From Clostridia bacterium (GTDB lineage: Bacteria > Bacillota > Clostridia > Christensenellales > Aristaeellaceae): 64,000 nucleotides of DNA. Every line of letters starts with the position of its first letter. Position 1 is the first letter of the stretch. The stretch lies in contig JAFRNK010000026.1 in the NCBI GenBank assembly GCA_017430225.1, positions 11,956 to 75,955 of the forward strand, read 5' to 3'. The position numbers and the translations under genes are program-made. This document shows positions 4,059 through 57,655 of this stretch, piece after piece. The notes beneath the pieces were generated by a model. The model made no database searches, had not been told where the DNA came from, and saw only the letters and a program-made list of their open reading frames with translations.

Positions 4059-5015
4059 TTACTCTTCTGTGGCGCGCAGGCTCAGGCCGAGACCTTCAAG
4101 CTTCTGCTCCACTTCTTCCAAACTCTTTTTGCCCAGGTTGCGGACTTTCATCATGTCCTCCTGGTTGCGCTGAACAAGCTCATTGACGGTATTGATCCCC
4201 GCGCGCTTCAGGCAGTTGTAAGCGCGGACGGAGAGATCCAGTTCCTCAATGGTCATCTCCAACAGACGTTCGACCTTGTTATCTTCAGGTTCAACGACCG
4301 TCGGCGGGATGATCTGGTCAGTCAGGCGGCAGAACAGCGAGAGCTGTTCGGTCAGGATCCGCGCAGCCGTGGAAATTGCTTCGTCAGGCTGGACGGTACC
4401 GTCCGTGGTGACCTCGAGCGTCAGGCGGTCATAGTCCGTGATCTGCCCGACACGCGTATCATCGACCGTGTAATTGACCTTGCGGATAGGCGTATAGATC
4501 GAATCGATCGGAATCACGCCGATGGGCGTCTGATTGTCCTTGTTCTTTTCAGCCTGGACATAGCCGCGGCCATGATCCATGGTGATGAACATATGCAGGT
4601 GAGCGCTTTCATCCAGAGTGGCGATGTGCAGGTCGGGATTCACGATCTCGACCTCGTCATCCACATGGATATCGCCCGCCGTGAACTCACACGGCCCCTT
4701 GACATCGATTTCGATCCGTTTTACTTCGTCAGAGAAGAGCTTGAGCGCCAGTTCCTTAAAGTTCAGGATAATTTCGGTAACATCTTCCTTCACGCCAGGA
4801 ATTGTGGAAAACTCATGCTGTACCCCGTCAATCTGTACGGAGGTCACAGCAGCGCCGGTCAGGGAGCTCAGCAGCACTCTGCGCAGCGCGTTGCCCAGCG
4901 TATGTCCGAAACCGCGCTCAAGCGGCTCGATGACAAAACGGCCGAACTGATTGTTGTCCAGAATCTCGGTGCATTCGATGTGGGCCTTTTCGATTTCTGC
5001 GAACACTGGTTCCAA
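4059..5015 (-). CDS. rpoA: DNA-directed RNA polymerase subunit alpha
   Basis: 318 aa with [28 protein letters not shown] and C-terminal domain [19 protein letters not shown]. Confidence 0.97.
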
Positions 5016-5068
5016 CCCTCCCTATCAGGTAGCACCGCAAACAGCGGTAAAAAGCGGTAAGATGGACA

Positions 5069-20205: not shown

Positions 20206-21303
20206 TCACTCGTCTTCCGTTTCTTCATTATTATTCGTCTGCGTCTTCGGAAGCACCGCTCTCCTCGCGGCCTGGCGCTTGTGCTCTTCGCTCATGGCGG
20301 CATAATGGCGGCGGGTCGTGTTGACGTCCGAGTGCCCGAGTACGTCCGCCACCAGGTAGATGTCCCCCGTCTCCTGATAGAGGTTCGTGCCGAATGTGCT
20401 GCGCAGCTTGTGCGGGCTCAGCCGCTTTTTGAGCGGCGCTGCGACCAGCGCGTATTTCTTGACCAGGTTTTCGACCGCGCGCTGGGTGATTCGCCGCTTC
20501 TGCAGTGATAAAAACAGCGCGTCCTCATGGCCGGGCAGAGGTTCGATTTCCGAACGCTCCTCCAGATACCGGCGCAGCGCGTCCCCCACCTGATCCGGGA
20601 AATACAGTATCGTTTGGTTTCCGCCTTTGCGGGTGACCTGGAAAGCGTTCTCCTCAAAATCGACGTCACTCAGGTTGATGCCCACTAGTTCGCTCACGCG
20701 GATACCCGTACCCAGGAACATGAGCAGGATCGCGACATCGCGGCTCGCCGTTTTTCGGTTGAGCTTCTGCTGATGCTCGGTCAGACCGTCACCGGACGAG
20801 GCTGCCTCCAGCATCTTTTCCATTTCCTCGTAATCCAGTCGCAGGATCGGCTTTTCATGCAGCTTGGGCAGGCTGACCAGGGTCGCGATATTCGCTGGGA
20901 TATGCCCATTTTTAAAGAGGTATTCAAACAGTGACCGGAGCGAGCACAGCTTGCGCATGATCCCCAGCTCGTGGTTCTGCATCAGGCTTTCGTCCCGCGT
21001 AAAGTACTGCCCCAGATAGTCCTGAAAACCCTCGATGTCCCGGGCCGTCAGGCTGCTCAGTTCACGGTCCCCGATCAGGGAAATGTCCACGTCCGCAAAA
21101 TCGGGGTTTTCTTTCTGCAGATAATCAAAAAACAGCCGGTAATCATAGGCGTACGCCAGCCGCGTCAGCGTACTGGTGGTATGTCCGATCGAACGGAAAA
21201 AGTCCGTGCACACCGCGGGCAGTTCCCGCTGAAGCTGCCGCAGCCTTCCTGTACGGCGAATGTCCTGTTGAGTTTTATAATCTGCTTTCTGCTGGTAAGG
21301 CAT
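20206..21303 (-). CDS. tyrosine-type site-specific recombinase/integrase (XerC/D family)
   Basis: 365 aa. The C-terminal catalytic region has GIRVSEL, HKLRSTFGT and LGHSDVNTTRRHY (R..HxxR..Y pattern). Confidence 0.88.
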   Translation of the reverse strand: MPYQQKADYKTQQDIRRTGRLRQLQRELPAVCTDFFRSIGHTTSTLTRLAYAYDYRLFFDYLQKENPDFADVDISLIGDRELSSLTARDIEGFQDYLGQYFTRDESLMQNHELGIMRKLCSLRSLFEYLFKNGHIPANIATLVSLPKLHEKPILRLDYEEMEKMLEAASSGDGLTEHQQKLNRKTASRDVAILLMFLGTGIRVSELVGINLSDVDFEENAFQVTRKGGNQTILYFPDQVGDALRRYLEERSEIEPLPGHEDALFLSLQKRRITQRAVENLVKKYALVAAPLKKRLSPHKLRSTFGTNLYQETGDIYLVADVLGHSDVNTTRRHYAAMSEEHKRQAARRAVLPKTQTNNNEETEDE

Positions 21304-33686: not shown

Positions 33687-34006
33687 GATGTTGCAGAAGA
33701 TCATCTGCAACATCCTCTCTATTTCCAGGTATATCGTTTTTCTAAATAGATTGTGCAACAAAGAGTGTCATGCAATCAGAAAACTCTGGGAGGTTTGGAG
33801 GGGCCGCAGCCCCTCCAAGTATAATCCGCAGCAGCGACATGTGCGGTGCGAGGAGCATTTTTGCGAAGCAGAGCTTGCCCTGCGAGAGCAAAAATGCTTT
33901 CTTTGCGCCTTTTCCGCCCGGGAGGCCCGAAGGGACGAGAGGAAAAGGCGTTTTGTCGATCAAATGGAGTTATCCATTTGATCGTAGGGGTTGTATAACA
34001 ACCCCT
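33687..34006. other. ORF-poor field of six consecutive perfect palindromes
   Basis: Stems at 33687-97/33704-14 (11 bp), 33795-803/33810-18 (9 bp), 33854-64/33888-98 (11 bp), 33906-15/33941-50 (10 bp, then TTTTG), 33958-68/33973-83 (11 bp) and 33986-94/33998-34006 (9 bp). Confidence 0.7.
33826..33955 (+). ncRNA. speculative small RNA (TATAAT at 33820-25 to a hairpin + T-run at 33906-33955)
   Basis: A -10-like TATAAT without a good -35. Three hairpins, the last (CGCCTTTTCC..GGAAAAGGCG) followed by TTTTG on the plus strand. No coding potential. Confidence 0.25.
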
Positions 34007-34013
34007 TATTCCT

Positions 34014-34589
34014 TCATTCCTCGTACTGGTATCCCAGTTCAAACGCCTTCATGTTGATGTCCAGGAATTTGGGCGGGACAGTCGTGCGCAGGGTTTCTTC
34101 CCACTGCTCGCGGGGGATTGACGTATTGCGGGCCAGCAGGCCGATCAGCACGACGTTCACAGCCTTGATGCTGCCCGCTTCCCGGGCCAGCACCAGAGCG
34201 TCCACCGCGGTCAGCTTCGCGCGCTCCCGCAGCGCCTCCTCGATCCCCTTCGGATACTCCGCCGCGCCGGTGATGACCGGCATCGGGTCGATCTGCTGGG
34301 CGTTGACGATGATCTGGCCGTCACGCTTCAGGTATGGCAGAGCGCGCAGGGCCTCCAGCAGTTCGAAGGACAGGATGATGTCCGCGCCGCCTTTTTCGAT
34401 GATCGGAGACCAGACCTTTTCGCCGAAACGGACATAGGTGGTCACACTGCCGCCGCGCTGGCTCATGCCGTGCACTTCGGAGACCTTGACGTCATAGCCC
34501 GCGCCGATCAGCGTGTTACCCAGGATGCGGCTGGCCAGCAAAGTGCCCTGGCCGCCGACGCCGACGATCATGATGCTCGTAATGCTCAT
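34014..34589 (-). CDS. iorB: indolepyruvate:ferredoxin oxidoreductase subunit beta
   Basis: 191 aa starting IMIVGVGGQGTLLASRILG, followed by SEVHGMSQRGGSV. ATGA overlap with iorA. Confidence 0.9.
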   Translation of the reverse strand: MSITSIMIVGVGGQGTLLASRILGNTLIGAGYDVKVSEVHGMSQRGGSVTTYVRFGEKVWSPIIEKGGADIILSFELLEALRALPYLKRDGQIIVNAQQIDPMPVITGAAEYPKGIEEALRERAKLTAVDALVLAREAGSIKAVNVVLIGLLARNTSIPREQWEETLRTTVPPKFLDINMKAFELGYQYEE

Positions 34590-36334
34590 ACCGGCTCAGC
34601 CTCCTTTTCGATGGCGTGGAATGGGCAGACGTTGACGCACAGCCCGCAGCCGTTGCACTGGGTCGCGTCGATCACGACACGCCCGTCGTGCACGGTCAGC
34701 GCCGGACAGCCCAGCTTCATGCACATGCGGCAGTCGCGGCAGGTGTCCTGATTGACATGGCAGTGCCCCGCGTATTTGACATATTTGAGCAGCGCGCAGG
34801 GCCGCTGCGCGATGATCACAGAAGGCTCGTCAGCTGCGATCTCTTCTTTGACAGCGGCTTCCATCGCCTTGACGTCGAAGGGATCCACCACGCGCACGCG
34901 GTCGATGCCCACGGCTTTCGCCAGTAGCTCCAGATCCACCTGTTTGGTGGCTTCGCCGCGGATGGTTTTTCCGGTGGTCGGGTTGTCCTGATGGCCGGTC
35001 ATACCAGTGATGGAGTTGTCCAGGATGATCACCGTGTTGATGCCTTTGTTGTAGACTACGTCGATGAGTCCCGTGATGCCGGAATGGATGAAAGTGGAAT
35101 CGCCGATGACGCTGACCAGCTTCTTCGCGAATTCCGGGCCGCGGGCTTTCGCCATGCCCAGGGCCGCGCCGATGGACGCGCCCATGCAGATCGTCGTGTC
35201 GATAGAACCCAGCGGAGGCATCGCGCCGAGCGTGTAGCAGCCGATATCGCCGCACACGGTCAGGCCGAGTTTCTTCAAAACGTAGAAAGTGCCGCGGTGC
35301 GGGCAGCCCGCGCACATGACCGGCGGACGCACCGGCACCGGCAGTCCGGCGTCAGTTACGGGTTCATCGTCCGTGTTCAGCACCGCCTGCCTGATCATCG
35401 CGGCGCTGTATTCGCCCAGCATGGTAAAGGCTTCCTTGCCGATGACGCCGAGGCCCAAGGAACGGACGTAGGTCTCGATAAAGGGATCCAGCTCCTCGAT
35501 GACAAACACGACCTCGTGGGCGGCCACGAATTCACAGAGCTTGCGCTCCGGCAGCGGCCAGACCATGCCCAGCTTCAGGTAGTCCGCCCGCTCGTCCAGC
35601 GCTTCCTGCGCATACAGATAAGAGATACCTCCGCAGATGACGCCGATGGCCGAACCGTTGTCGATCACCTGGTTAAGCGGCGTTTCCTCGGCAAAAGCGC
35701 GCAGGGCTTCCGTACGCTTTTCCACGTCCACGTGCCGGCGGATGGCGTTGGCGGGAGCCATGACGAACTTCGCGGGATTCTTCACATAATCCTTGAGCGG
35801 CACCTGGTCGGGCTCGCCCAGCTGCGCCATGCTCTGGGAATGCGCGACACGCGTGGTCAGGCGCAGGAAGACCGGAACGTCGAACTTTTCGCTCATTTCA
35901 TAGGCAGCCTTGGTATAGGCCAGGCACTCGTCGGAGTCCGAGGGCTCCAGCATCGGGCACTTGGACGCTTCCGCGTAGTGGCGGGAGTCCTGCTCGTTCT
36001 GGCTCGAATGCATGCCCGGGTCGTCCGCCACAGCGATCACCAACCCGCCGTTGACGCCGGTATAGGAAGCGGTGAACACGGGATCGGCCATCACGTTCAG
36101 ACCCACATGCTTGCAGCAGGTCATCGCGCGGGCGCCGCCGATGGACGCGCCGATCGCCACTTCACAGGCTACTTTTTCGTTCGGCGCCCACTCACAGTAG
36201 ATTTCCGGATACTTGACGATGCTCTCGGTGATTTCCGTGCTCGGCGTGCCGGGATAGGATGCCACGACACGGACGCCGGCCTCATACGCGCCGCGCGCGA
36301 CGGCCGCGTTACCGATCAGCAGTTGTGATTTCAT
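34586..36334 (-). CDS. iorA: indolepyruvate:ferredoxin oxidoreductase subunit alpha
   Basis: Has a TPP-binding region and double ferredoxin motifs (CRDCRMCMKLGCP, CNGCGLCVNVCP). Start set to the ATG at 36334 (MKSQLLIGNAAVARG), which forms an ATGA overlap with the ligase stop. Confidence 0.9.
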   Translation of the reverse strand: MKSQLLIGNAAVARGAYEAGVRVVASYPGTPSTEITESIVKYPEIYCEWAPNEKVACEVAIGASIGGARAMTCCKHVGLNVMADPVFTASYTGVNGGLVIAVADDPGMHSSQNEQDSRHYAEASKCPMLEPSDSDECLAYTKAAYEMSEKFDVPVFLRLTTRVAHSQSMAQLGEPDQVPLKDYVKNPAKFVMAPANAIRRHVDVEKRTEALRAFAEETPLNQVIDNGSAIGVICGGISYLYAQEALDERADYLKLGMVWPLPERKLCEFVAAHEVVFVIEELDPFIETYVRSLGLGVIGKEAFTMLGEYSAAMIRQAVLNTDDEPVTDAGLPVPVRPPVMCAGCPHRGTFYVLKKLGLTVCGDIGCYTLGAMPPLGSIDTTICMGASIGAALGMAKARGPEFAKKLVSVIGDSTFIHSGITGLIDVVYNKGINTVIILDNSITGMTGHQDNPTTGKTIRGEATKQVDLELLAKAVGIDRVRVVDPFDVKAMEAAVKEEIAADEPSVIIAQRPCALLKYVKYAGHCHVNQDTCRDCRMCMKLGCPALTVHDGRVVIDATQCNGCGLCVNVCPFHAIEKEAEPV

Positions 36335-37977
36335 AGCTGTACCTCGATTTCGTTCTGTTTCGCGACGACGCTCTCGCCGCAATAGATTTCACGCAGTTTG
36401 GGCTTTTCGATCTTGCCGGTGGCGTTGCGCGGCACATGCGCGAAGATGATCTTGCGCGGGCGCTTGTAACGCGGCATACCGGCACAGAACTCGTTGATTT
36501 CTTCCTCGGTCGCGGTCATGCCTTCCTTGATCTCGATGATCGCCGCCGCGATCTCGCCCAGGCGCGGATCGGGCAGGCCGATGACCGCCACGTCCTTCAC
36601 CGCGTTGTGCGCGCGGATGAAGTCTTCGATCTGCACCGGATACAGGTTTTCGCCGCCGGTAATGATGACGTCCTTCTTGCGGTCTACCAGGTAGATGAAC
36701 CCGTCGGCGTCCCGCATGGCCATGTCGCCTGTAAAGAGCCAGCCGTCCTTCAGCACCTCGTTGGTCGCCTGTTCGTCCTTATAGTAGCAGGTCATGACGC
36801 CGGGGCCTTTCACACAGAGTTCGCCCACGCTGCCCTGTTCGACCGGCTGTCCCTGCGGATCGACGATCTTGACCTCCCAGCCGTAGCCCGGGATGCCGAT
36901 CGCGCCGACCTTGTGCACGTTTTCAACGCCCAGGTGCACGCAGCCGGGTCCGATGGATTCAGACAGGCCGTAATTGGTATCGTACTGGTGATGCGGGAAA
37001 ACGTTCAGCCAGCGCTTGATCAGGGACGGCGGCACCGGCTGCGCACCGATGTGCATTAGACGCCACTGGTCAAGTTGATAGTCGTCCAGCTTCACGTCAC
37101 CGCGGTCGATCGCGTCCAGGATATCCTGCGCCCATGGCACCAGCAGCCAGACGATGGTGCAGTGCTCGTCGCTGACCGCCTTCAGCACCCACTCCGGACG
37201 CGTGCCCTTAAGCAGTACAGCTTTGCCGCCGACCAGGAAGCTGCCGAACCAGTGCATTTTCGCGCCGGTGTGATACAGCGGCGGGATGCAGAGAAACACG
37301 TCGTCGTGCGTCTGGCCGTGGTGATTCTGCTCAACCATCGCTGCGTGCATGAGCGAGCGATGCTTGTGCAGGATCGCCTTGGGGAAACCGGTCGTGCCCG
37401 AGGAATAGTAAACCGCGCCGTAATCGTCGTCCGTCAGCGGGATGTTCGGGTTATCGGTGGAGCAGAAACCGATCATTTCATTATAGCTGTCCGCGAAGGT
37501 CGGGCACTCCTCACCGACATAGAAGAGGTGACGCACCTTGGGAATGCGGTCGCAGATCTCCTCCATGCGGCCGATGAACTCGGGACCGAAAGCGAGCATG
37601 GTGCAGTCAGCCTTCTCAAGGCAGTAGCGGATCTCTTCCGCAGTATAGCGGTAATTGAGCGGCACCGCAACTGCGCCGGCGCGTAGGATGCCGAAATACA
37701 CGGGGAGCCATTCCAGCGAGTTCATCATCAGGATGGCGACCTTGTCGCCCTTATGGCAGCCGCGGGTGAGCAGCAGGTTGGCAAAACGGTTGGCCTTCAG
37801 GTCAAAATCCTTCCAGGTCAGTTCGCGGCGGAAAGGCTGGCCGGGCTCCGGCTGCATCAGCGAATACTCGCGCCAGGTAATACGGCTTTCCGGTTCAAAC
37901 TTCGGGTTGATTTCGACCAGAGCGGTTTCCTGCCCGTAAAGCTCAGCGTTACGGCTCAGGATTTCAGTGATGGGCAT
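36331..37977 (-). CDS. AMP-dependent acyl-CoA synthetase/ligase (ANL superfamily)
   Basis: 548 aa with AMP-binding motif YSSGTTGFPKAILHKHRS, and later GWLFTGDMAMRDADGFIYLVDRKKD. AAGGAGG 9 nt upstream of the ATG. Confidence 0.88.
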   Translation of the reverse strand: MPITEILSRNAELYGQETALVEINPKFEPESRITWREYSLMQPEPGQPFRRELTWKDFDLKANRFANLLLTRGCHKGDKVAILMMNSLEWLPVYFGILRAGAVAVPLNYRYTAEEIRYCLEKADCTMLAFGPEFIGRMEEICDRIPKVRHLFYVGEECPTFADSYNEMIGFCSTDNPNIPLTDDDYGAVYYSSGTTGFPKAILHKHRSLMHAAMVEQNHHGQTHDDVFLCIPPLYHTGAKMHWFGSFLVGGKAVLLKGTRPEWVLKAVSDEHCTIVWLLVPWAQDILDAIDRGDVKLDDYQLDQWRLMHIGAQPVPPSLIKRWLNVFPHHQYDTNYGLSESIGPGCVHLGVENVHKVGAIGIPGYGWEVKIVDPQGQPVEQGSVGELCVKGPGVMTCYYKDEQATNEVLKDGWLFTGDMAMRDADGFIYLVDRKKDVIITGGENLYPVQIEDFIRAHNAVKDVAVIGLPDPRLGEIAAAIIEIKEGMTATEEEINEFCAGMPRYKRPRKIIFAHVPRNATGKIEKPKLREIYCGESVVAKQNEIEVQL

Positions 37978-38030
37978 AGGGTTGAGCCTCCTTTTTGTGT
38001 TTGGAGAGCAAATGAAAACGCCCTCCGCAT

Positions 38031-38284
38031 CTCAAAATGAAGAGGACGATAATAAATTACCGCGGTACCACCTCTTTTGCCGCCGGCCATTGCCGGACAG
38101 CCGCTCACAAGGGTTGCCCCTTTCGCGCGCTGACGGGCGCACCCGGCGCAGCCTACACAGGATATATCCCTTCGGTGCGCGACTCGCGGGCTGTATTCGG
38201 TCGGGCCGCTCATCCTGCCTTGCACCAGCCGGCAGGTCTCTGCCATGGGCGCGTCCGCCTACTTGTTCCCGGTCACTGTCTTTC
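38031..38284 (-). promoter_or_regulatory. T-box riboswitch leader (candidate specifier UAC = Tyr)
   Basis: On the minus strand: AG bulge AGAGA (38241-37), distal loop GGTGCAA (38226-20), GAA-UAC-A (38198-92), CCCGTCA (38137-31), T-box AAAAGAGGTGGTACCGCGG (38078-60), and terminator AAGAGG..CCTCTT + CATTTTG (38076-38034). Confidence 0.85.
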
Positions 38285-38290
38285 AGGCGC

Positions 38291-38319
38291 ATTATACCCG
38301 CATTTTCACGAAGCGTCAA
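38291..38319 (-). promoter_or_regulatory. promoter of the T-box / ligase-iorAB operon
   Basis: The minus strand reads TTGACG (38319-14), a 17-nt spacer, then TATAAT (38296-91). Confidence 0.8.
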
Positions 38320-38471
38320 GACAGCAGAATGTTTTATTACGGTTCCGGCTGAAAAATTAACGAAAACGTTAACAGAATTGTAAGCAAATCAACATCAAAT
38401 GTAATTGACTTTGATTGCACGATTATGCTACCATTTCCACGATGACTCACTTGAATGGAGGTCGATTCACG

Positions 38472-39326
38472 ATGTTTAAACGTATTCTGGCTGTTGTGAT
38501 GCTTTCAATCCTGCTGGTCGGCGGTCTGGTGCCCGCCGCGTCAGCGGTTACTTGGAAAGAGCCCTGGGATTTCTCCGGCGGTTACTACACCGAGGACTGG
38601 GCAAAGCATTTTGCCACCAAGAAGGTCACTACCAACACCAAAACCACCATGTACCGTGTGCGTAAGCATGCATACAACACCGAATCCAAGAAATTCGAAA
38701 CGGTGTCCAGCCTGCGCGTCCGCTGGGAGCCCCGCGCCTACGTCCTGAACAGCCAGGGCAAGCAGATCAAGCGCTGGTTCACCCGCGAAAACCGCCTGAC
38801 CTACACCACGGCCCATTACAGCTATCTGTATTACAAGGCCGGAGACGAGTTGGCCATCGTCGGCAAGACCAACGTCAACAAGCTCTGGTATCTGGTCAAT
38901 ATCGAACAGACGCCGGTCAATCCCTACAACAAGAATTCCAAGAAGCGCATTTCCGATAAGCAGCTGTATGACATCATTGACAACTATGAAGGTCACTTCG
39001 GCTGGGTGTTCGGGCGCTACATGGTCGCGGACAACAAGAGCGGCGACTATACCGTCAAGGTCAAGTCCAAGAACGCCACGCTGTACGCCAACCACTCCAT
39101 CTCCTCCAAGGTCGTAGCGACCGTCGGCAAGGGAACCAAGCTCACTCCCACCTATTCGAGCTGGCCGAAACCGTCCGCCCAGGACGGCATCGCCGCGGAA
39201 GAGAAGTATGAGCTGAACGGTTCTCTGACCACCAACAAGAAGGGCTATGTCTGGCACCAGGTCTACTACAACGGCAAGAAGTGCTGGATCCGCAACGACC
39301 ACGTCACGGTGACGGAAAACAAGTAA
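38472..39326 (+). CDS. secreted hypothetical protein, SH3b-like, Lys/Asn/Tyr/Thr-rich
   Basis: Start trimmed to the ATG at 38472 (MFKRILAVVMLSILLVGGLVPAASA signal) after GGAGG. C-terminus GYVWHQVYYNGKKCWIRNDHV is SH3b-like. Confidence 0.6.
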   Translation: MFKRILAVVMLSILLVGGLVPAASAVTWKEPWDFSGGYYTEDWAKHFATKKVTTNTKTTMYRVRKHAYNTESKKFETVSSLRVRWEPRAYVLNSQGKQIKRWFTRENRLTYTTAHYSYLYYKAGDELAIVGKTNVNKLWYLVNIEQTPVNPYNKNSKKRISDKQLYDIIDNYEGHFGWVFGRYMVADNKSGDYTVKVKSKNATLYANHSISSKVVATVGKGTKLTPTYSSWPKPSAQDGIAAEEKYELNGSLTTNKKGYVWHQVYYNGKKCWIRNDHVTVTENK

Positions 39327-45776: not shown

Positions 45777-47252
45777 TTAATCGGCGTTTTCCCGCGGCAT
45801 CAGCCTGATCAGTTCGGAATACGCCTCATAGAGGTCTCCCCCGATTTCCGTCTCCACACGGATCCGATAAAACCCCGCCGGCGCAGGCTGACCGCCGGCA
45901 AGCGAGCCGTCCCAGTACAGGCAGGTGCCCTCGGGCACCAGGTGCTGCGGGCGGCTTTGCTGTTGATAGGCCAGGTAACGCACCGTTGCGCCGCGCATAT
46001 TCTGAATGGATACGTTGAGTACGCACGGGATGTCGTGGCGCACGGTCACAGGCGCCTCAGCCCCGCCTTCCGCCCTGAACACGCGCGGGCTTTCCACGCT
46101 CAGCGCGATATCGCCACCGAGCGGCAGCACGCTGACCAGGCGGCTTTCGCACAGCACCGGGCGTTCGTCGTTCAGTGAAAAGATCTGCACCATCAGATAG
46201 CCGGACACGTCCTCGTCTTCGTCGGCCAGATGCAGGTTCAGCGCGCGCTCGTACATACCGGGTTCGAGGGCTTCCGGTTCGGCAAACTGCACGGCGTTCT
46301 GGAAATCCCAGGCGCCGCGCCGCATATAAACCAATTGGTAGCCGACCCGCATGGGCGAGCCCAATTCGAAGGAAAAACGCAGCCTGTCCGTCTCGCCGGA
46401 GAACACCGTCTCTTCGAACTCAACATCGGTCAGCCCTTCTGTCTCCCCTCCAGCGCCGCAGCAAAAGAGCGCGAAACCGCCGTCCTGCTCAGGATAGACC
46501 TGCGCGGTCGACACCGCGTAATGCCCGCGCAGCCACTCAAAGGCTTCACGCAGGGTGATCGCTCCGTCCTCATCCTCGTCGGCGGGAAAGCCTGATTCCG
46601 CGTCACAGCCGTGGGACAGGATCGAGGTAAAATAGCCCGCCCCGTGCAGCGCACCGGACTCTTCCGAGCGCCAGTACCAGCTGTCCTCGCTGCCGCCGGC
46701 GCTGCAGAGCACTTTGTTCCCTCCGGCCAGCGGCACCGCGTCCGGCCAGTTGCTCAGGCCCTTTCCGATGAACGCGCCGGAATGGCAGGCGTCCATCAGC
46801 ACTACGTGGGTACCCGGGATCTCGTTGAGGATGGCCTCCAGCATCCGCGGGTACATCTTCTCCTCCGTTTCGCCGTCCGAGAGCAGCAGCGCGGCGCTGA
46901 TATTGGTGTGCGCCGGATTGTATACCCCGTGCGTGCTGATATACAACAGGGAAACATCGCCGTCCGCGGCACCTGAAAACGTTTCCGCAACCGTCGTGCG
47001 GAACGCATCCACCGTGCCGATCGTATCACATTCCGTGCGGATGAGTTCATACCCCCGGGCGTCCTGTGCTAGCAGTTCCGCCATCAGGCGCGCGTTTTCC
47101 TGCGCGGCGGGCGTCGTCTCCTCCTGGCTCAAGAAGCGGTCGCAGGTCACGATCAGCGCGCGCAGCACCGGACTCTCCTCGCACAAAGCCGGACAGCAAA
47201 TGAAGAAAAGCAAAAACGCCTGCAGAACCAGGCTTGCGGCGTGCTTCTTCAC
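45777..47252 (-). CDS. secreted caspase-like peptidase (family C14) with Ig-like C-terminal domain
   Basis: 491 aa, GTG start, signal peptide. His-Cys dyad contexts LLYISTHG and VVLMDACHSGAFIG. C-terminal GGQPAPAGFYRIRVE resembles FlgD-Ig type domains. Confidence 0.75.
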   Translation of the reverse strand: MKKHAASLVLQAFLLFFICCPALCEESPVLRALIVTCDRFLSQEETTPAAQENARLMAELLAQDARGYELIRTECDTIGTVDAFRTTVAETFSGAADGDVSLLYISTHGVYNPAHTNISAALLLSDGETEEKMYPRMLEAILNEIPGTHVVLMDACHSGAFIGKGLSNWPDAVPLAGGNKVLCSAGGSEDSWYWRSEESGALHGAGYFTSILSHGCDAESGFPADEDEDGAITLREAFEWLRGHYAVSTAQVYPEQDGGFALFCCGAGGETEGLTDVEFEETVFSGETDRLRFSFELGSPMRVGYQLVYMRRGAWDFQNAVQFAEPEALEPGMYERALNLHLADEDEDVSGYLMVQIFSLNDERPVLCESRLVSVLPLGGDIALSVESPRVFRAEGGAEAPVTVRHDIPCVLNVSIQNMRGATVRYLAYQQQSRPQHLVPEGTCLYWDGSLAGGQPAPAGFYRIRVETEIGGDLYEAYSELIRLMPRENAD

Positions 47253-50841: not shown

Positions 50842-50911
50842 AGCGTAACGCGATTGTGTACACAGGGGAAAACTTCCCCGCGTTATCGCTGAAAGAAAGG
50901 GATGATTGCGC

Positions 50912-52213
50912 ATGGAACGTTATTATCAGCCGGAAATCGAAACGGCTTCCAGAGAACAGATCAAAGCCTGGCAGGATGAGCGCCTGGTCAAGCAGGTGCG
51001 GCACGTATGGGACAATGTGCCCTACTATCGCAAAAAAATGGAAGAAAAGGACCTGACGCCCGACGACATCAAGGGCAGGGACGACCTGAAGAAACTGCCT
51101 TTCCTGAGCAAGGCCGACCTGCGCGATGCTTATCCCTACGGCCTCCTGGGCATGCCGCTCAAGGAGTGCGTGCGCATCCAGTCCACTTCCGGCACCACCG
51201 GCAAACGCGTGGTCGCTTTCTACACCCAGCACGACATCGACCTGTGGGAAGACTGCTGTGCCCGCGCCATCACCGCTGCCGGCGGCACGAACGAGGACGT
51301 CTGCCAGATTTCCTACGGCTACGGCCTCTTCACCGGCGGCCCGGGCCTGAACGGCGGCAGCCATAAGGTCGGTTGCCTGACCGTGCCGACCTCTTCCGGC
51401 AACACCGAGCGCCAGATCATGTTCATCCGCGACCTGAGCGCGACCATCCTGTGCTGCACGCCTTCCTACGCCGCCTATCTCGGCGAGACGATGAAGGAAA
51501 TGGGCATGACCCCTGACCAGATCCCGCTGAAGGCCGGCATTTTCGGCGCGGAAGCCTGGTCTGAGGAGATGCGGCAGGACATCCAGAACACGCTGGGCAT
51601 CAAAGCCTACGATATTTACGGCCTGACCGAGGTTTCCGGCCCTGGTGTAGCCTTCGAGTGCTCCGCGCAGAACGGCATGCACATCAACGAGGACCATTTC
51701 ATCGCCGAGGTCATCGATCCCGAGACCGGCGAACCGCTGCCTGACGGCGAGCAGGGCGAACTGGTTTTCTCTTCCATCACAAAGGAAGCATTCCCGCTGC
51801 TGCGCTACCGCACGCGTGACATCTGCGTGCTGAGCCACGAAAAATGCAGCTGCGGCCGCACGCACGTGAAGATGAGCAAGCCGCGCGGACGCACGGACGA
51901 TATGCTCATCATCCGCGGCGTGAACGTGTTCCCGTCCCAGATCGAGACCGTGCTCATCAACCAGGGCTATCCGGCCAACTACCAGATCATCGTGGACCGC
52001 GTGCGCAACACCGACACGCTGGACATCCAGGTAGAGATGACGCCCGAAATGTTCACCGACAACATGGGCGAGATCACCAGCCGCCAGAAGGCGCTGGTCG
52101 ACGGCCTGCGCGCGATGCTGGGCCTGACCGCCAAGGTCACGCTCGTCGCGCCCAAGACCATCGTCCGCAGCGAAGGCAAGGCTGTGCGCGTGATCGACAA
52201 ACGTAAGATTTAA
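50912..52213 (+). CDS. paaK: phenylacetate--CoA ligase
   Basis: MERYYQPEIETASREQIKAWQDERLVKQV, VRIQSTSGTTGKRVV and GRTDDMLIIRGVNVFPSQIE are typical of PaaK. ATG at 50912 preferred over the TTG at 50906. Confidence 0.9.
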   Translation: MERYYQPEIETASREQIKAWQDERLVKQVRHVWDNVPYYRKKMEEKDLTPDDIKGRDDLKKLPFLSKADLRDAYPYGLLGMPLKECVRIQSTSGTTGKRVVAFYTQHDIDLWEDCCARAITAAGGTNEDVCQISYGYGLFTGGPGLNGGSHKVGCLTVPTSSGNTERQIMFIRDLSATILCCTPSYAAYLGETMKEMGMTPDQIPLKAGIFGAEAWSEEMRQDIQNTLGIKAYDIYGLTEVSGPGVAFECSAQNGMHINEDHFIAEVIDPETGEPLPDGEQGELVFSSITKEAFPLLRYRTRDICVLSHEKCSCGRTHVKMSKPRGRTDDMLIIRGVNVFPSQIETVLINQGYPANYQIIVDRVRNTDTLDIQVEMTPEMFTDNMGEITSRQKALVDGLRAMLGLTAKVTLVAPKTIVRSEGKAVRVIDKRKI

Positions 52214-52229
52214 TAAAGGAGGGCAAGGC

Positions 52230-52655
52230 ATGAGCGTCAAACAGATTTCCGTATTCCTTGAGAACAAGCCCGGCGCCCTGTGCGAGCTGACCAGCGTCCT
52301 GGCGGAGAATAATATCGACATGCGCGCCTTCTCCGTGGCAGAAGCCAGCGATTTCGGCATCGCTCGCATCATCGTGGACGACGTCTACAAGACGACCACC
52401 GTCCTGCGCGAGAAGGGCTTTGTTCACAGCGTCTCCCCCGTCCTGGCCGTGGCGCTGTCCGATACCCCCGGCGGCCTGAACGAGATCCTGAAATCCCTTT
52501 CCGCCGAAAAAGTCAATGTGGAATACATGTATGCTTTCCTGGGCAATACCCCCGGAAAAGCCTACATGGTCTTCAAAGTACATGAACCCGTCGCTGCCGC
52601 CGCCGCGCTTTCCAAGCACGGCATCATGCCGCTCGATGAGCTGAACGTCGAATAA
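52230..52655 (+). CDS. ACT domain-containing protein (PaaK-associated type)
   Basis: 141 aa starting MSVKQISVFLENKPGALCELTSVLAENNIDMRAF, with a second ACT-like half. Immediately downstream of paaK. Confidence 0.8.
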   Translation: MSVKQISVFLENKPGALCELTSVLAENNIDMRAFSVAEASDFGIARIIVDDVYKTTTVLREKGFVHSVSPVLAVALSDTPGGLNEILKSLSAEKVNVEYMYAFLGNTPGKAYMVFKVHEPVAAAAALSKHGIMPLDELNVE

Positions 52656-56407: not shown

Positions 56408-57655
56408 TTACTGCCTTCCGGTAAAGTCGTACCGGTTCATGTCCCACAGCCCGTCCGTCACGGCGCCTTTCAGATAATAAGTAAAGACGGAGTTGGGCAG
56501 ATACTTTTCCCAGAACGCCATTCCACCCGCGTCCCCGAGTCCGCCGCGGGTCCCCGCGAAGTCCCGTACGCTGAGCTCGACGCCGAAATCAATCATCCGC
56601 TGCTTGTCCTCTTCCGGGATTTCAAGCCCTGCCACGGTTGCTGTCACCTTCCTGCGCACGACCTCTCGGTAGAACTCCTCGTCATACCGCCTGAAGTCCA
56701 GCAGGTCGGGGTTCGTTTCGCCCGTTTCCCTGGCCCAGCCTTCCACGTCCACCGGCACCGCCTCGTAAGTCTTCAGCTGGCCGCCGTCCAGTGTGATCAC
56801 CCCATAATAACAGGGCGACAGCACCATGGACGAGGTCACGATCTCCACGGTATCCTCCAGCGCCGTGATATGCTGCATGTGCGTATGCCCGCTCAGGTTC
56901 AGGCGCACGCCGTATTGCCGGTACAAAGCCTGGAGTTTCTGCGGCTGACTGATCATGACGCCCTGCGTGAAATACTTGTTGTGCGGCAGCAGGTTCTGGT
57001 GGCTCACACCGATCACGGTCACCCCGGCGGCCTGCGCCGCCTGCAGCTGTTCCTCAAGCCACGCGAGGGTTTCCGCCCGGACCAGCCCCGGCTTTCCGTT
57101 GGCGTTCACGTCCAGCATGACGGCCCAGACGTCTTCGCTGAGCTTCGAAACATAGCTGAGCGAGTTTACTTCCCGGCTGAGCGCACCGGCAAATCCGAAG
57201 GGTTCGTAGATTTCCAGGAATCCGCTGTTCGTCGCGGCAGGAAAGCCGATCACTCCGTTCGGGCCGAAGCTGTACGCCTGCCCGCCCACGTCGTGGTTGC
57301 CGGGCATCGTCAGCACCGGGATACTGGCGTCCGCCAGCTCTTTGAGCATCGCAGCGAACTCCTGATGGCTCACGGGCGCGCCGTTCAGCGTCAGGTCGCC
57401 GCTCAGGATCACCGCGTCCGGCCGCAGGCGCAGCATGTCCCGGACAAACGCCCTGCAGATCTGCGGTGAATAATGGATCGTCTTCCCGTCTGCCGCGTAC
57501 ACAGTGTTCATGAACCGCTCGCCGTAGTCCGTCAGCGACGGGGACAGATAGTGCATGTCCGTCGCCAGCACCACGGTCAGCCGCGCATCCTCCGCCACGG
57601 CGGCGCCGGCTGCCAGAAGAAGCAGCATGCAGGTCAATGCCAGGATCCTTTTCAT
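56408..57655 (-). CDS. secreted metallophosphoesterase (calcineurin-like)
   Basis: 415 aa with a signal peptide and the motifs TDMHY, SGDLTLNG, PGNHD, GHTHMQH. Confidence 0.85.
   Translation of the reverse strand: MKRILALTCMLLLLAAGAAVAEDARLTVVLATDMHYLSPSLTDYGERFMNTVYAADGKTIHYSPQICRAFVRDMLRLRPDAVILSGDLTLNGAPVSHQEFAAMLKELADASIPVLTMPGNHDVGGQAYSFGPNGVIGFPAATNSGFLEIYEPFGFAGALSREVNSLSYVSKLSEDVWAVMLDVNANGKPGLVRAETLAWLEEQLQAAQAAGVTVIGVSHQNLLPHNKYFTQGVMISQPQKLQALYRQYGVRLNLSGHTHMQHITALEDTVEIVTSSMVLSPCYYGVITLDGGQLKTYEAVPVDVEGWARETGETNPDLLDFRRYDEEFYREVVRRKVTATVAGLEIPEEDKQRMIDFGVELSVRDFAGTRGGLGDAGGMAFWEKYLPNSVFTYYLKGAVTDGLWDMNRYDFTGRQ

Follow-up and report, generated by a model that had tools for sequence, protein, structure and literature searches.

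A predicted tyrosine-specific T-box riboswitch ahead of an acyl-CoA ligase and indolepyruvate:ferredoxin oxidoreductase operon in a Clostridia bacterium

A stretch of 64,000 nucleotides from a Clostridia bacterium of the Aristaeellaceae (assembly GCA_017430225.1, contig JAFRNK010000026.1, positions 11,956 to 75,955), hereafter referred to as the window, carries on its minus strand a T-box leader RNA followed by three genes encoding an AMP-forming acyl-CoA ligase and the alpha and beta subunits of indolepyruvate:ferredoxin oxidoreductase (IOR; iorA and iorB). The leader is probably a canonical T-box riboswitch, acting by transcription attenuation and specific for tRNA-Tyr, with tRNA binding predicted from its conserved elements. 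It also seems likely, judging from sequence, that tyrosine starvation would induce the uptake of 4-hydroxyphenylacetate, its activation with CoA and its reductive carboxylation on the way to tyrosine, with substrate, flux and induction all predicted. As an RNA switch the T-box is ordinary; the novelty resides in the genes that it controls and in what this implies.

A T-box leader RNA upstream of the ligase gene

The original prediction had placed on the minus strand a TTGACG-17-TATAAT promoter followed by a leader with the Stem I bulge AGAGA, the distal loop GGTGCAA, a GAA-UAC-A specifier loop, an F-box-like CCCGTCA and the T-box sequence AGAGGUGGUACCGCGG. The promoter and all of these motifs are present (Table 1), the F-box-like element reading CCCGUCA in the RNA. 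The leader passes the curated threshold of the Rfam T-box model RF00230 (gathering score 93 bits), and its match, whose first base lies 6 nt from the end of the -10 box, represents the sole Rfam family found within the 64-kb window. Elements of a specifier-loop S-turn are recognizable in both halves of the loop, AAGUA in the 5' half and GAA-UAC-A in the 3' half.

The 3' strand of the antiterminator and the 5' arm of the terminator are the same segment, CGUCCUCU, and the two structures are therefore mutually exclusive. The predicted overlap of a terminator hairpin with the T-box was thus borne out; the proposed tail CATTTTG was not, the corresponding CAUUUUG lying in the terminator loop and the actual tail being UUUUCAUUU. 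T-boxes switch genes on when their cognate tRNA is uncharged, and bacterial tRNA-Tyr typically has the discriminator base A73, with which the UGGU bulge of the T-box would pair. No tRNA genes were found in the window.

Table 1. Features of the T-box-controlled operon and of the second ligase locus (window positions)
Feature	Position	Strand	Evidence or remark
Sigma-70-type promoter TTGACG-17-TATAAT	38291..38319	-	11/12 consensus matches
T-box leader RNA, RF00230	38039..38285	-	100.9 bits, E 4.5e-21, model 1-219, not truncated
Stem I (specifier-loop helix, AG bulge AGAGA, distal loop GGUGCAA)	38187..38271	-	covariation, 16 leaders
Specifier codon UAC (Tyr) in GAA-UAC-A	38193..38195	-	AAUAC invariant, 19 leaders
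T-box sequence AGAGGUGGUACCGCGG	38076-38061	-	UGGU bulge at 38070-38067
T-box sequence and antiterminator	38041..38076	-	aligned to model positions 186-216
Intrinsic terminator, stem CGUCCUCU..GGAGGGCG (38048-38019) and UUUUCAUUU (38018-38010)	38010..38048	-	hairpin in minimum-energy fold
Ribosome-binding site AAAGGAGG	37987..37994	-	9 nt ahead of ligase ATG; read from sequence
AMP-forming acyl-CoA ligase, FadD/4CL type, 548 aa	36331..37977	-	PF00501 254.5 bits and PF13193 50.9 bits
iorA, IOR alpha subunit, 582 aa	34586..36334	-	TIGR03336 719.5 bits (cutoff 650.9)
iorB, IOR beta subunit, 191 aa	34014..34589	-	NF005325 288.9 bits (cutoff 230); PF01558
GC-rich hairpin AGGGGTTGTTATACAACCCCT	33986..34006	.	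8 nt past iorB stop
PaaK-like ligase	50906-52213	+	TIGR02155 512 bits (cutoff 646); PF14535 also matches
ACT-pair protein	52230-52655	+	PF19571

Conservation of the specifier in genome and metagenome leaders

Relatives of the ligase were sought among contigs representing one genome per species, and the percent identities and synteny counts given below refer to the best 80 of them. Of these 80 loci, 77 were scanned with Rfam (L077-L079 were left out), and in 18 of the 77 a T-box lies ahead of the ligase gene on its strand. All of these T-boxes (18/18) present UAC; UUC or UGG specifiers were not encountered among these 18 genome-derived leaders. Sixteen orthologous leaders (mean column identity 66%) were aligned and, together with those of L009, L018 and L027, bring the total to 19, the window included. 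The three additional leaders also contain AAUAC, and their T-box core reads GGUGGUAACACG or GGUGGUACAGCG. A terminator overlapping the antiterminator occurs in 19/19 leaders, and a GC-rich hairpin followed by a run of U residues in 18/18 of the orthologous ones.

Covariation in the 16-leader alignment supports the fold of Stem I. In this alignment 89.2% of the Stem I cells are paired, as compared to 34-44% after displacement of the 3' partners by 1-3 columns, compensatory changes are seen in 17 of the 18 pairs, and none of 500 shuffles reached the observed values. The helix closing the specifier loop (columns 16-20/100-104) is 96% paired and covaries; its columns 20/100 are A-U in 14/16 leaders, next to a pair that also covaries. 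AGAGA is invariant, as are G60, U62 and G63 among the distal-loop columns matching GGUGCAA; in T-boxes these two motifs build the platform on which the tRNA elbow docks. The specifier loop leaves 7 nt per side, the 3' side consisting of GAA, UAC and A, and the position after UAC varies between A, C and G, with a purine in most leaders. The Bacillus subtilis glyQS T-box reportedly has the same 7+7 nt arrangement, with GAA-GGC-A. Since Stem I covariation fixes the register, UAC, an aromatic codon, falls in the canonical codon position, as the original prediction had supposed.

A pattern search of metagenomes, constrained to the T-box core and the N-terminus of the ligase with the specifier left free, recovered 61 stretches, 48 of them with a ligase homologue behind; the upstream sequence was readable in 46 of the 48 and fell into 27 leader clusters. 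GAAUAC is found in 24 of these clusters. Two others, amounting to 21 contigs of which several are labelled human gut metagenome, carry GAAUUACUC (GAAUUAC), a loop one nucleotide longer that gives UAC when the closing helix serves as the reference point and UUA (Leu) when GAA does. These leaders are ambiguous in sequence and are most simply read as UAC. They occur at L083:4210-4455 and in about 20 more contigs (L084, L086, L087, L089, L091, L106, L113, L115, L123, L124, L134-L136 and others), upstream of lig-iorA-iorB, and apparently stem from one recurrent species.

The remaining cluster (1/27) reads GAA-UUC-A, that is, Phe, and corresponds to L129:184-419 (-) on contig Ga0172378_10166725 (T-box 109 bits), which ends 48 residues into a clear member of the ligase family (MPITEIL...VEINPK...). 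A search for the full-length ligase with this 48-residue fragment returned only short fragments of at most 72% identity. The closest relative of L129, L127 from the same metagenome, shares 81% identity across the 48 residues; its leader is similar, its specifier is UAC and lig-iorA-iorB is present. Read in this way, the specifier stays within the aromatic amino acids across the leaders. Of the variation between UAC, UUC and UGG that the original prediction had proposed to look for in orthologous leaders, a UAC to UUC switch was thus seen once, and UGG (Trp) in neither the 18 genome leaders nor the 27 metagenome clusters.

A specifier read in another register would have a non-aromatic tRNA sensed, ACA (Thr) being presented in the window and UUA (Leu) in leaders of the L083 type. 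Such a shift could be invoked on account of the A-G mismatch that the window has at columns 20/100, the pair closing the specifier loop, of the low posterior probability at the specifier columns in the Rfam alignment and of the extra U in the L083-type leaders; moreover, A, C or G after UAC would be synonymous changes for ACN, so that the Thr codons ACA/ACC/ACG appear compatible with the sequence variation alone. It is nevertheless disfavoured by the loop geometry, A-U at columns 20/100 of most leaders and the covarying adjacent pair pointing to the canonical arrangement, and by the homologous L129 leader, with its unambiguous 7+7 geometry, in which the same shift would turn UUC-A into UCA (Ser). 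Furthermore, a single coherent amino acid class, and one that matches IOR chemistry, emerges only with the UAC/UUC reading. On these grounds the Thr/Leu register was rejected as most improbable, and the specifier is taken below as that for Tyr.

Genes of the operon and identity of the ligase

Profile matches and junction sequences confirmed the three genes that had been predicted behind the T-box, an ANL-family ligase, iorA and iorB joined by ATGA overlaps. Both junctions (ligase/iorA and iorA/iorB) are of this type, the iorA ATG overlapping the ligase stop codon. IorA and IorB score above their equivalog cutoffs, and thiamine pyrophosphate (TPP), POR and 4Fe-4S domains are present, those for TPP and 4Fe-4S in IorA. 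An alternative iorA start at TTG 36382 was rejected in favour of ATG 36334 (582 aa), the start used for identical public contigs. The hairpin AGGGGTTGTTATACAACCCCT beyond iorB, which has no U-run on the minus strand, is the probable end of the operon and may serve as its terminator.

Assignment of the ligase is less direct. All of the 25 NCBIfam models listed for it score under their cutoffs, the top one being NF004837 (415.7 vs 476 bits), and the protein does not qualify as a long-chain-fatty-acid-CoA ligase of the PRK06187 subfamily. Among solved structures, FadD13, FadD5, feruloyl-CoA synthetase and 4-coumarate ligases (4CL) come closest. It is not of the PaaK type either, as neither TIGR02155 nor PF14535 (AMP-binding_C_2) matches it. 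Taking together the T-box specifier and synteny, it is predicted to be a 4-hydroxyphenylacetate (arylacetate)-CoA ligase.

A second arylacetate ligase gene, PaaK-like and followed by that of an ACT-pair protein, had been described as lacking a T-box, and indeed Rfam detected none at this locus in the 64-kb window. Ahead of it, from 50655, lies a pyrimidine-rich non-coding sequence of about 250 nt without Rfam matches. One may speculate that the PaaK-type and the T-box-controlled ligases split the labour and feed one IOR.

Distribution and genomic context of the ligase family

Relatives of the ligase are encoded in at least 594 of 599 candidate stretches, and the best 80 are 70-81% identical to it. 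Their hosts are mostly gut and rumen Clostridia, including Oscillospiraceae, Acutalibacteraceae, Ruminococcus albus, R. flavefaciens and Lachnospiraceae, with a few metagenome-assembled genomes (MAGs) labelled Thermoguttaceae, Lentisphaerae, Victivallales and Bacteroidaceae. In the latter the ligase is approximately 72-74% identical to the Clostridia version (L023, L046, Thermoguttaceae; L062, Lentisphaerae; L068, Victivallales; L066, Bacteroidaceae, also with iorAB). Horizontal transfer between organisms of the gut and rumen, or else wrong binning of contigs, would account for its occurrence in MAGs of other phyla.

The iorA-iorB pair stands behind the ligase gene in 44 of the 80 loci. Among the 18 loci with a T-box, the leader lies directly ahead of the ligase in nine, ahead of a sodium:solute symporter gene preceding the ligase in six, and ahead of symporter, Amidohydro_2 and ligase genes in three. 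In L015 and L070 the T-box unit consists of ligase and symporter, without iorAB, and in L050 of the ligase and a major facilitator superfamily (MFS) transporter only, the best match of which is an L-lactate/monocarboxylate transporter. In the ligase tree, T-box-bearing loci occur mainly in part of the family, mixed with loci that have none. Loci without a T-box (59 of 77, R. albus and R. flavefaciens among them) have short leaders and plain promoters, with no hint of another riboswitch, and the genes next to solitary ligase genes (sortase, ABC-2 transporter, pyrimidine nucleoside phosphorylase, radical SAM and TPR proteins) give no functional clue. Given these 59 loci, a response to tyrosine is not an inherent property of the module; T-box control is an add-on in some lineages.

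Several further features of these loci were recorded. The Amidohydro_2 (PF04909) gene between symporter and ligase in the Tyr T-box operon is found at L025:2183-2974, L026:2184-2999, L075:2202-2993 and L063:2-736 and matches no NCBIfam model; the PF04909 family includes non-oxidative aromatic-acid decarboxylases. Directly downstream of lig-iorAB in L063, a Clostridia MAG, an OLE RNA (RF01071, 188 bits) extends from 4842 to 5053 (+) and ends at the contig edge. Group II intron domains (RF02001, 132 bits; RF01998, 46 bits) occur at L037:688-980 (+), some 2 kb ahead of a solitary ligase gene. Divergent from the Tyr T-box-ligase-symporter unit of L015 is a gene for an NhaC-family (PF03553) transporter (682-2403, -), on the strand of which no T-box was detected; an NhaC-family transporter under Tyr T-box control has been reported by Wels et al. 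2008 (PMC2494555).

Proposed mechanism and function

RNA polymerase would start at about position 38284. With charged tRNA-Tyr (anticodon GUA), the terminator at 38048-38010 would form and transcription would halt ahead of the ligase gene. Uncharged tRNA-Tyr, in turn, would pair through its anticodon with UAC in the Stem I specifier loop and through its free ACCA end with UGGU of the T-box bulge, stabilizing the antiterminator and allowing ligase, iorA and iorB to be transcribed. The FadD/4CL-like ligase would then spend ATP to convert imported 4-hydroxyphenylacetate into its CoA thioester, IorAB would use reduced ferredoxin and CO2 to carboxylate this reductively to 4-hydroxyphenylpyruvate, and a housekeeping aminotransferase encoded outside the operon would complete the route to tyrosine.

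Several lines of argument favour such a salvage route. T-box logic turns genes on under amino acid shortage, and induction at uncharged tRNA therefore fits the supply of tyrosine rather than its breakdown. It is the ligase rather than IOR that consistently accompanies the T-box, and units holding only the ligase and a transporter (L015, L070 and L050) suggest that the ligase is the tyrosine-linked step. Two unrelated importers of carboxylate type have been recruited into the unit, and both specifiers, Tyr and once Phe, are aromatic. As AMP-forming ligases drive thioester formation, the biosynthetic direction is favoured, and as tyrosine is the amino acid sensed, the aryl acid would be 4-hydroxyphenylacetate. 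The earlier proposal that starvation-induced control implies a biosynthetic ligase/IOR module is therefore supported as an interpretation by the computational checks, the flux itself still being a prediction.

A number of observations weigh against this reading. The window operon includes neither a transporter nor an aminotransferase, and the ligase has no characterized equivalog, its top matches being fatty-acyl, feruloyl and coumaroyl ligases. The transporter of the solute:sodium symporter family (SSF) in related loci is closest to PutP/PanF, under cutoffs, and could import tyrosine itself instead of an aryl acid. To these are added the many ligase loci devoid of a T-box, the A-G mismatch in the window together with the Thr-compatible variation discussed above, and the family member L129 behind a Phe T-box, which speaks against the family as a whole being strictly specific for 4-hydroxyphenylacetate.

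This last point bears on the possibility that the enzyme is a CoA ligase for arylacetates in general, with phenylacetate, 4-hydroxyphenylacetate and indoleacetate as substrates, and that the module supplies all three aromatic amino acids with tyrosine merely being the one sensed in most lineages. Synthesis of phenylalanine from phenylacetate is said to have been shown in R. albus and R. flavefaciens (Allison, 1965), two species whose ligases belong to a family more than 70% identical with and without T-boxes. Besides, IOR enzymes accept all three arylpyruvates (PMC13285125), and the Phe specifier of L129 would find a ready explanation. A broad substrate range is harder to reconcile with a Tyr specifier that is near-invariant (18/18 genome leaders and 24-26 of the 27 metagenome clusters). 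In addition, the separate PaaK-type ligase with its ACT protein (50906-52655) could serve phenylacetate or indoleacetate, which suggests a division of labour between the two ligases. We thus regard a general ligase as rather unlikely and tyrosine-directed salvage as the better account.

Far less probable is that the module has no part in amino acid supply, the ligase activating an unrelated acid (fatty, cinnamic or phenylpropionic), IOR working oxidatively and the T-box link being incidental or answering some other need. The top NCBIfam and PDB matches of the ligase, the usual annotation of IOR as catabolic and the many solitary ligase genes amid unrelated neighbours would agree with it. Yet the T-box has kept its Tyr (once Phe) identity while the leaders, over 40 in number, diverged; translational coupling links the ligase to iorAB in the window, and in over half of the loci compared the ligase gene is followed by iorAB. 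Moreover, an AMP-forming ligase would be unable to conserve energy from an IOR-made thioester. Induction of tyrosine breakdown at uncharged tRNA-Tyr would also be counterproductive. A catabolic role was accordingly rejected on the basis of T-box logic, the AMP-forming ligase and specifier conservation.

Extended to the whole family, tyrosine salvage would make the ligase a widespread group (at least 594 species genomes, mostly of gut and rumen Clostridia) of dedicated 4-hydroxyphenylacetate-CoA ligases which, with importer and IorAB, constitute a tyrosine-specific salvage system. The specifier would label the substrate class, changing from UAC to UUC in a Phe-dedicated relative, the hosts would be sinks for 4-hydroxyphenylacetate, and IOR of gut Firmicutes would be primarily anabolic. 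This generalization could equally well prove right or wrong.

Surroundings of the operon in the window

The gene upstream of the promoter (38415-39326, +) is divergent and unrelated, and the surrounding genes are housekeeping ones (gyrB, gyrA, mutY, metG, tcdA and a ribosomal protein cluster). At 20206-21303 (-), between the ribosomal protein cluster and an amidase/gyrA region, lies a phage-type integrase gene (PF00589). Two more genes, at 45777-47252 (-) and 56408-57655 (-), encode a caspase-like protein, with a weak match of the EACC1-associated type (48.8 bits, far under cutoff), and a metallophosphoesterase, with a weak match to an anti-phage phosphoesterase model, also far under cutoff.

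Implications

Whether IOR of gut and rumen anaerobes is catabolic or anabolic is unsettled. A catabolic IOR would make phenylacetate, 4-hydroxyphenylacetate and indoleacetate, which are relevant to host health. A tRNA-Tyr switch ahead of ligase-iorAB provides an independent regulatory argument for the anabolic direction and names the amino acid. It suggests that in many gut and rumen Clostridia the ligase and IOR build tyrosine from scavenged 4-hydroxyphenylacetate rather than degrade amino acids, and that many Clostridia consume this compound, a precursor of p-cresol. The range of T-box-regulated functions would also be extended, from de novo synthesis, charging and uptake of amino acids to the salvage of a fermentation end-product, and a testable function is predicted for the ligases of a large family that lacks annotation, as well as for the SSF and MFS transporters associated with them.

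Comparison with known systems

The idea that an AMP-forming ligase and IOR can work biosynthetically is already published. An IOR-dependent route from aryl acids to aromatic amino acids has been described for Methanococcus maripaludis (Porat et al., as cited in PMC4162585), the synthesis of phenylalanine from phenylacetate has been reported for rumen cultures (as cited in PMC7356843), and a biosynthetic role has been put forward as possible for a Bacteroides IOR encoded beside an AMP-forming arylacetate ligase (Jiang et al. 2026, PMC13285125). The T-box link to ligase-iorAB, in turn, appears undescribed. No ferredoxin oxidoreductase or CoA ligase occurs in the T-box regulon surveys of Wels 2008 and Sun 2013, supplements included, and the only work on T-box riboswitch and phenylacetate in the literature searched concerned inhibitors. 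T-box and indolepyruvate were not found jointly in that literature, and a mention is possible in Vitreschak 2008, the 2009 MMBR T-box review, TBDB or RegPrecise. The original suggestion, which took the physiology as known from rumen and gut anaerobes and only its regulatory logic as undescribed, agrees with this within the literature searched.

When compared with the tyrS-type Tyr T-boxes of B. subtilis (RF00230), the leader is alike in the K-turn region, the AGUA/GAA + UAC specifier loop, the AG bulge, distal loop, F-box-like element and UGGN bulge, and in the competing antiterminator and terminator that regulate at the level of transcription. It differs in what it controls: instead of an aminoacyl-tRNA synthetase, a shikimate-pathway gene or a known tyrosine transporter, it precedes genes for a CoA ligase and a ferredoxin-dependent 2-oxoacid oxidoreductase, joined in related loci by a gene for a carboxylate importer.

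With the arylacetate route of M. maripaludis and rumen bacteria the module shares its proposed chemistry, from arylacetate to arylacetyl-CoA, on to arylpyruvate by IOR with CO2 and reduced ferredoxin, and finally to the amino acid; in contrast to the M. maripaludis route it is bacterial, uses a FadD/4CL-like ligase and has a predicted tRNA-Tyr sensor, which would signal starvation for one particular amino acid. T-box-type regulation of the archaeal or rumen aryl-acid systems was not found in the literature searched. The Bacteroides iorAB cluster (PMC13285125) likewise co-locates IOR with an AMP-forming ligase, but the ligase there is of the PaaK type rather than the FadD/4CL type, the cluster has no T-box, and its direction is argued from the type of enzyme alone.

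Clostridium scatologenes HpdDEFG/HpdJ/HpdK (PMC13285125) share with the window module the compounds 4-hydroxyphenylpyruvate, 4-hydroxyphenylacetyl-CoA and 4-hydroxyphenylacetate. That pathway is oxidative, leading from tyrosine to 4-hydroxyphenylacetate by means of a VOR-like four-subunit oxidoreductase, a phosphotransacylase and a kinase, so that ATP is conserved, and it is induced by growth on tyrosine. The window module has IorAB and an ATP-spending ligase, with predicted induction by lack of tyrosine, and for these reasons would run in the opposite direction.

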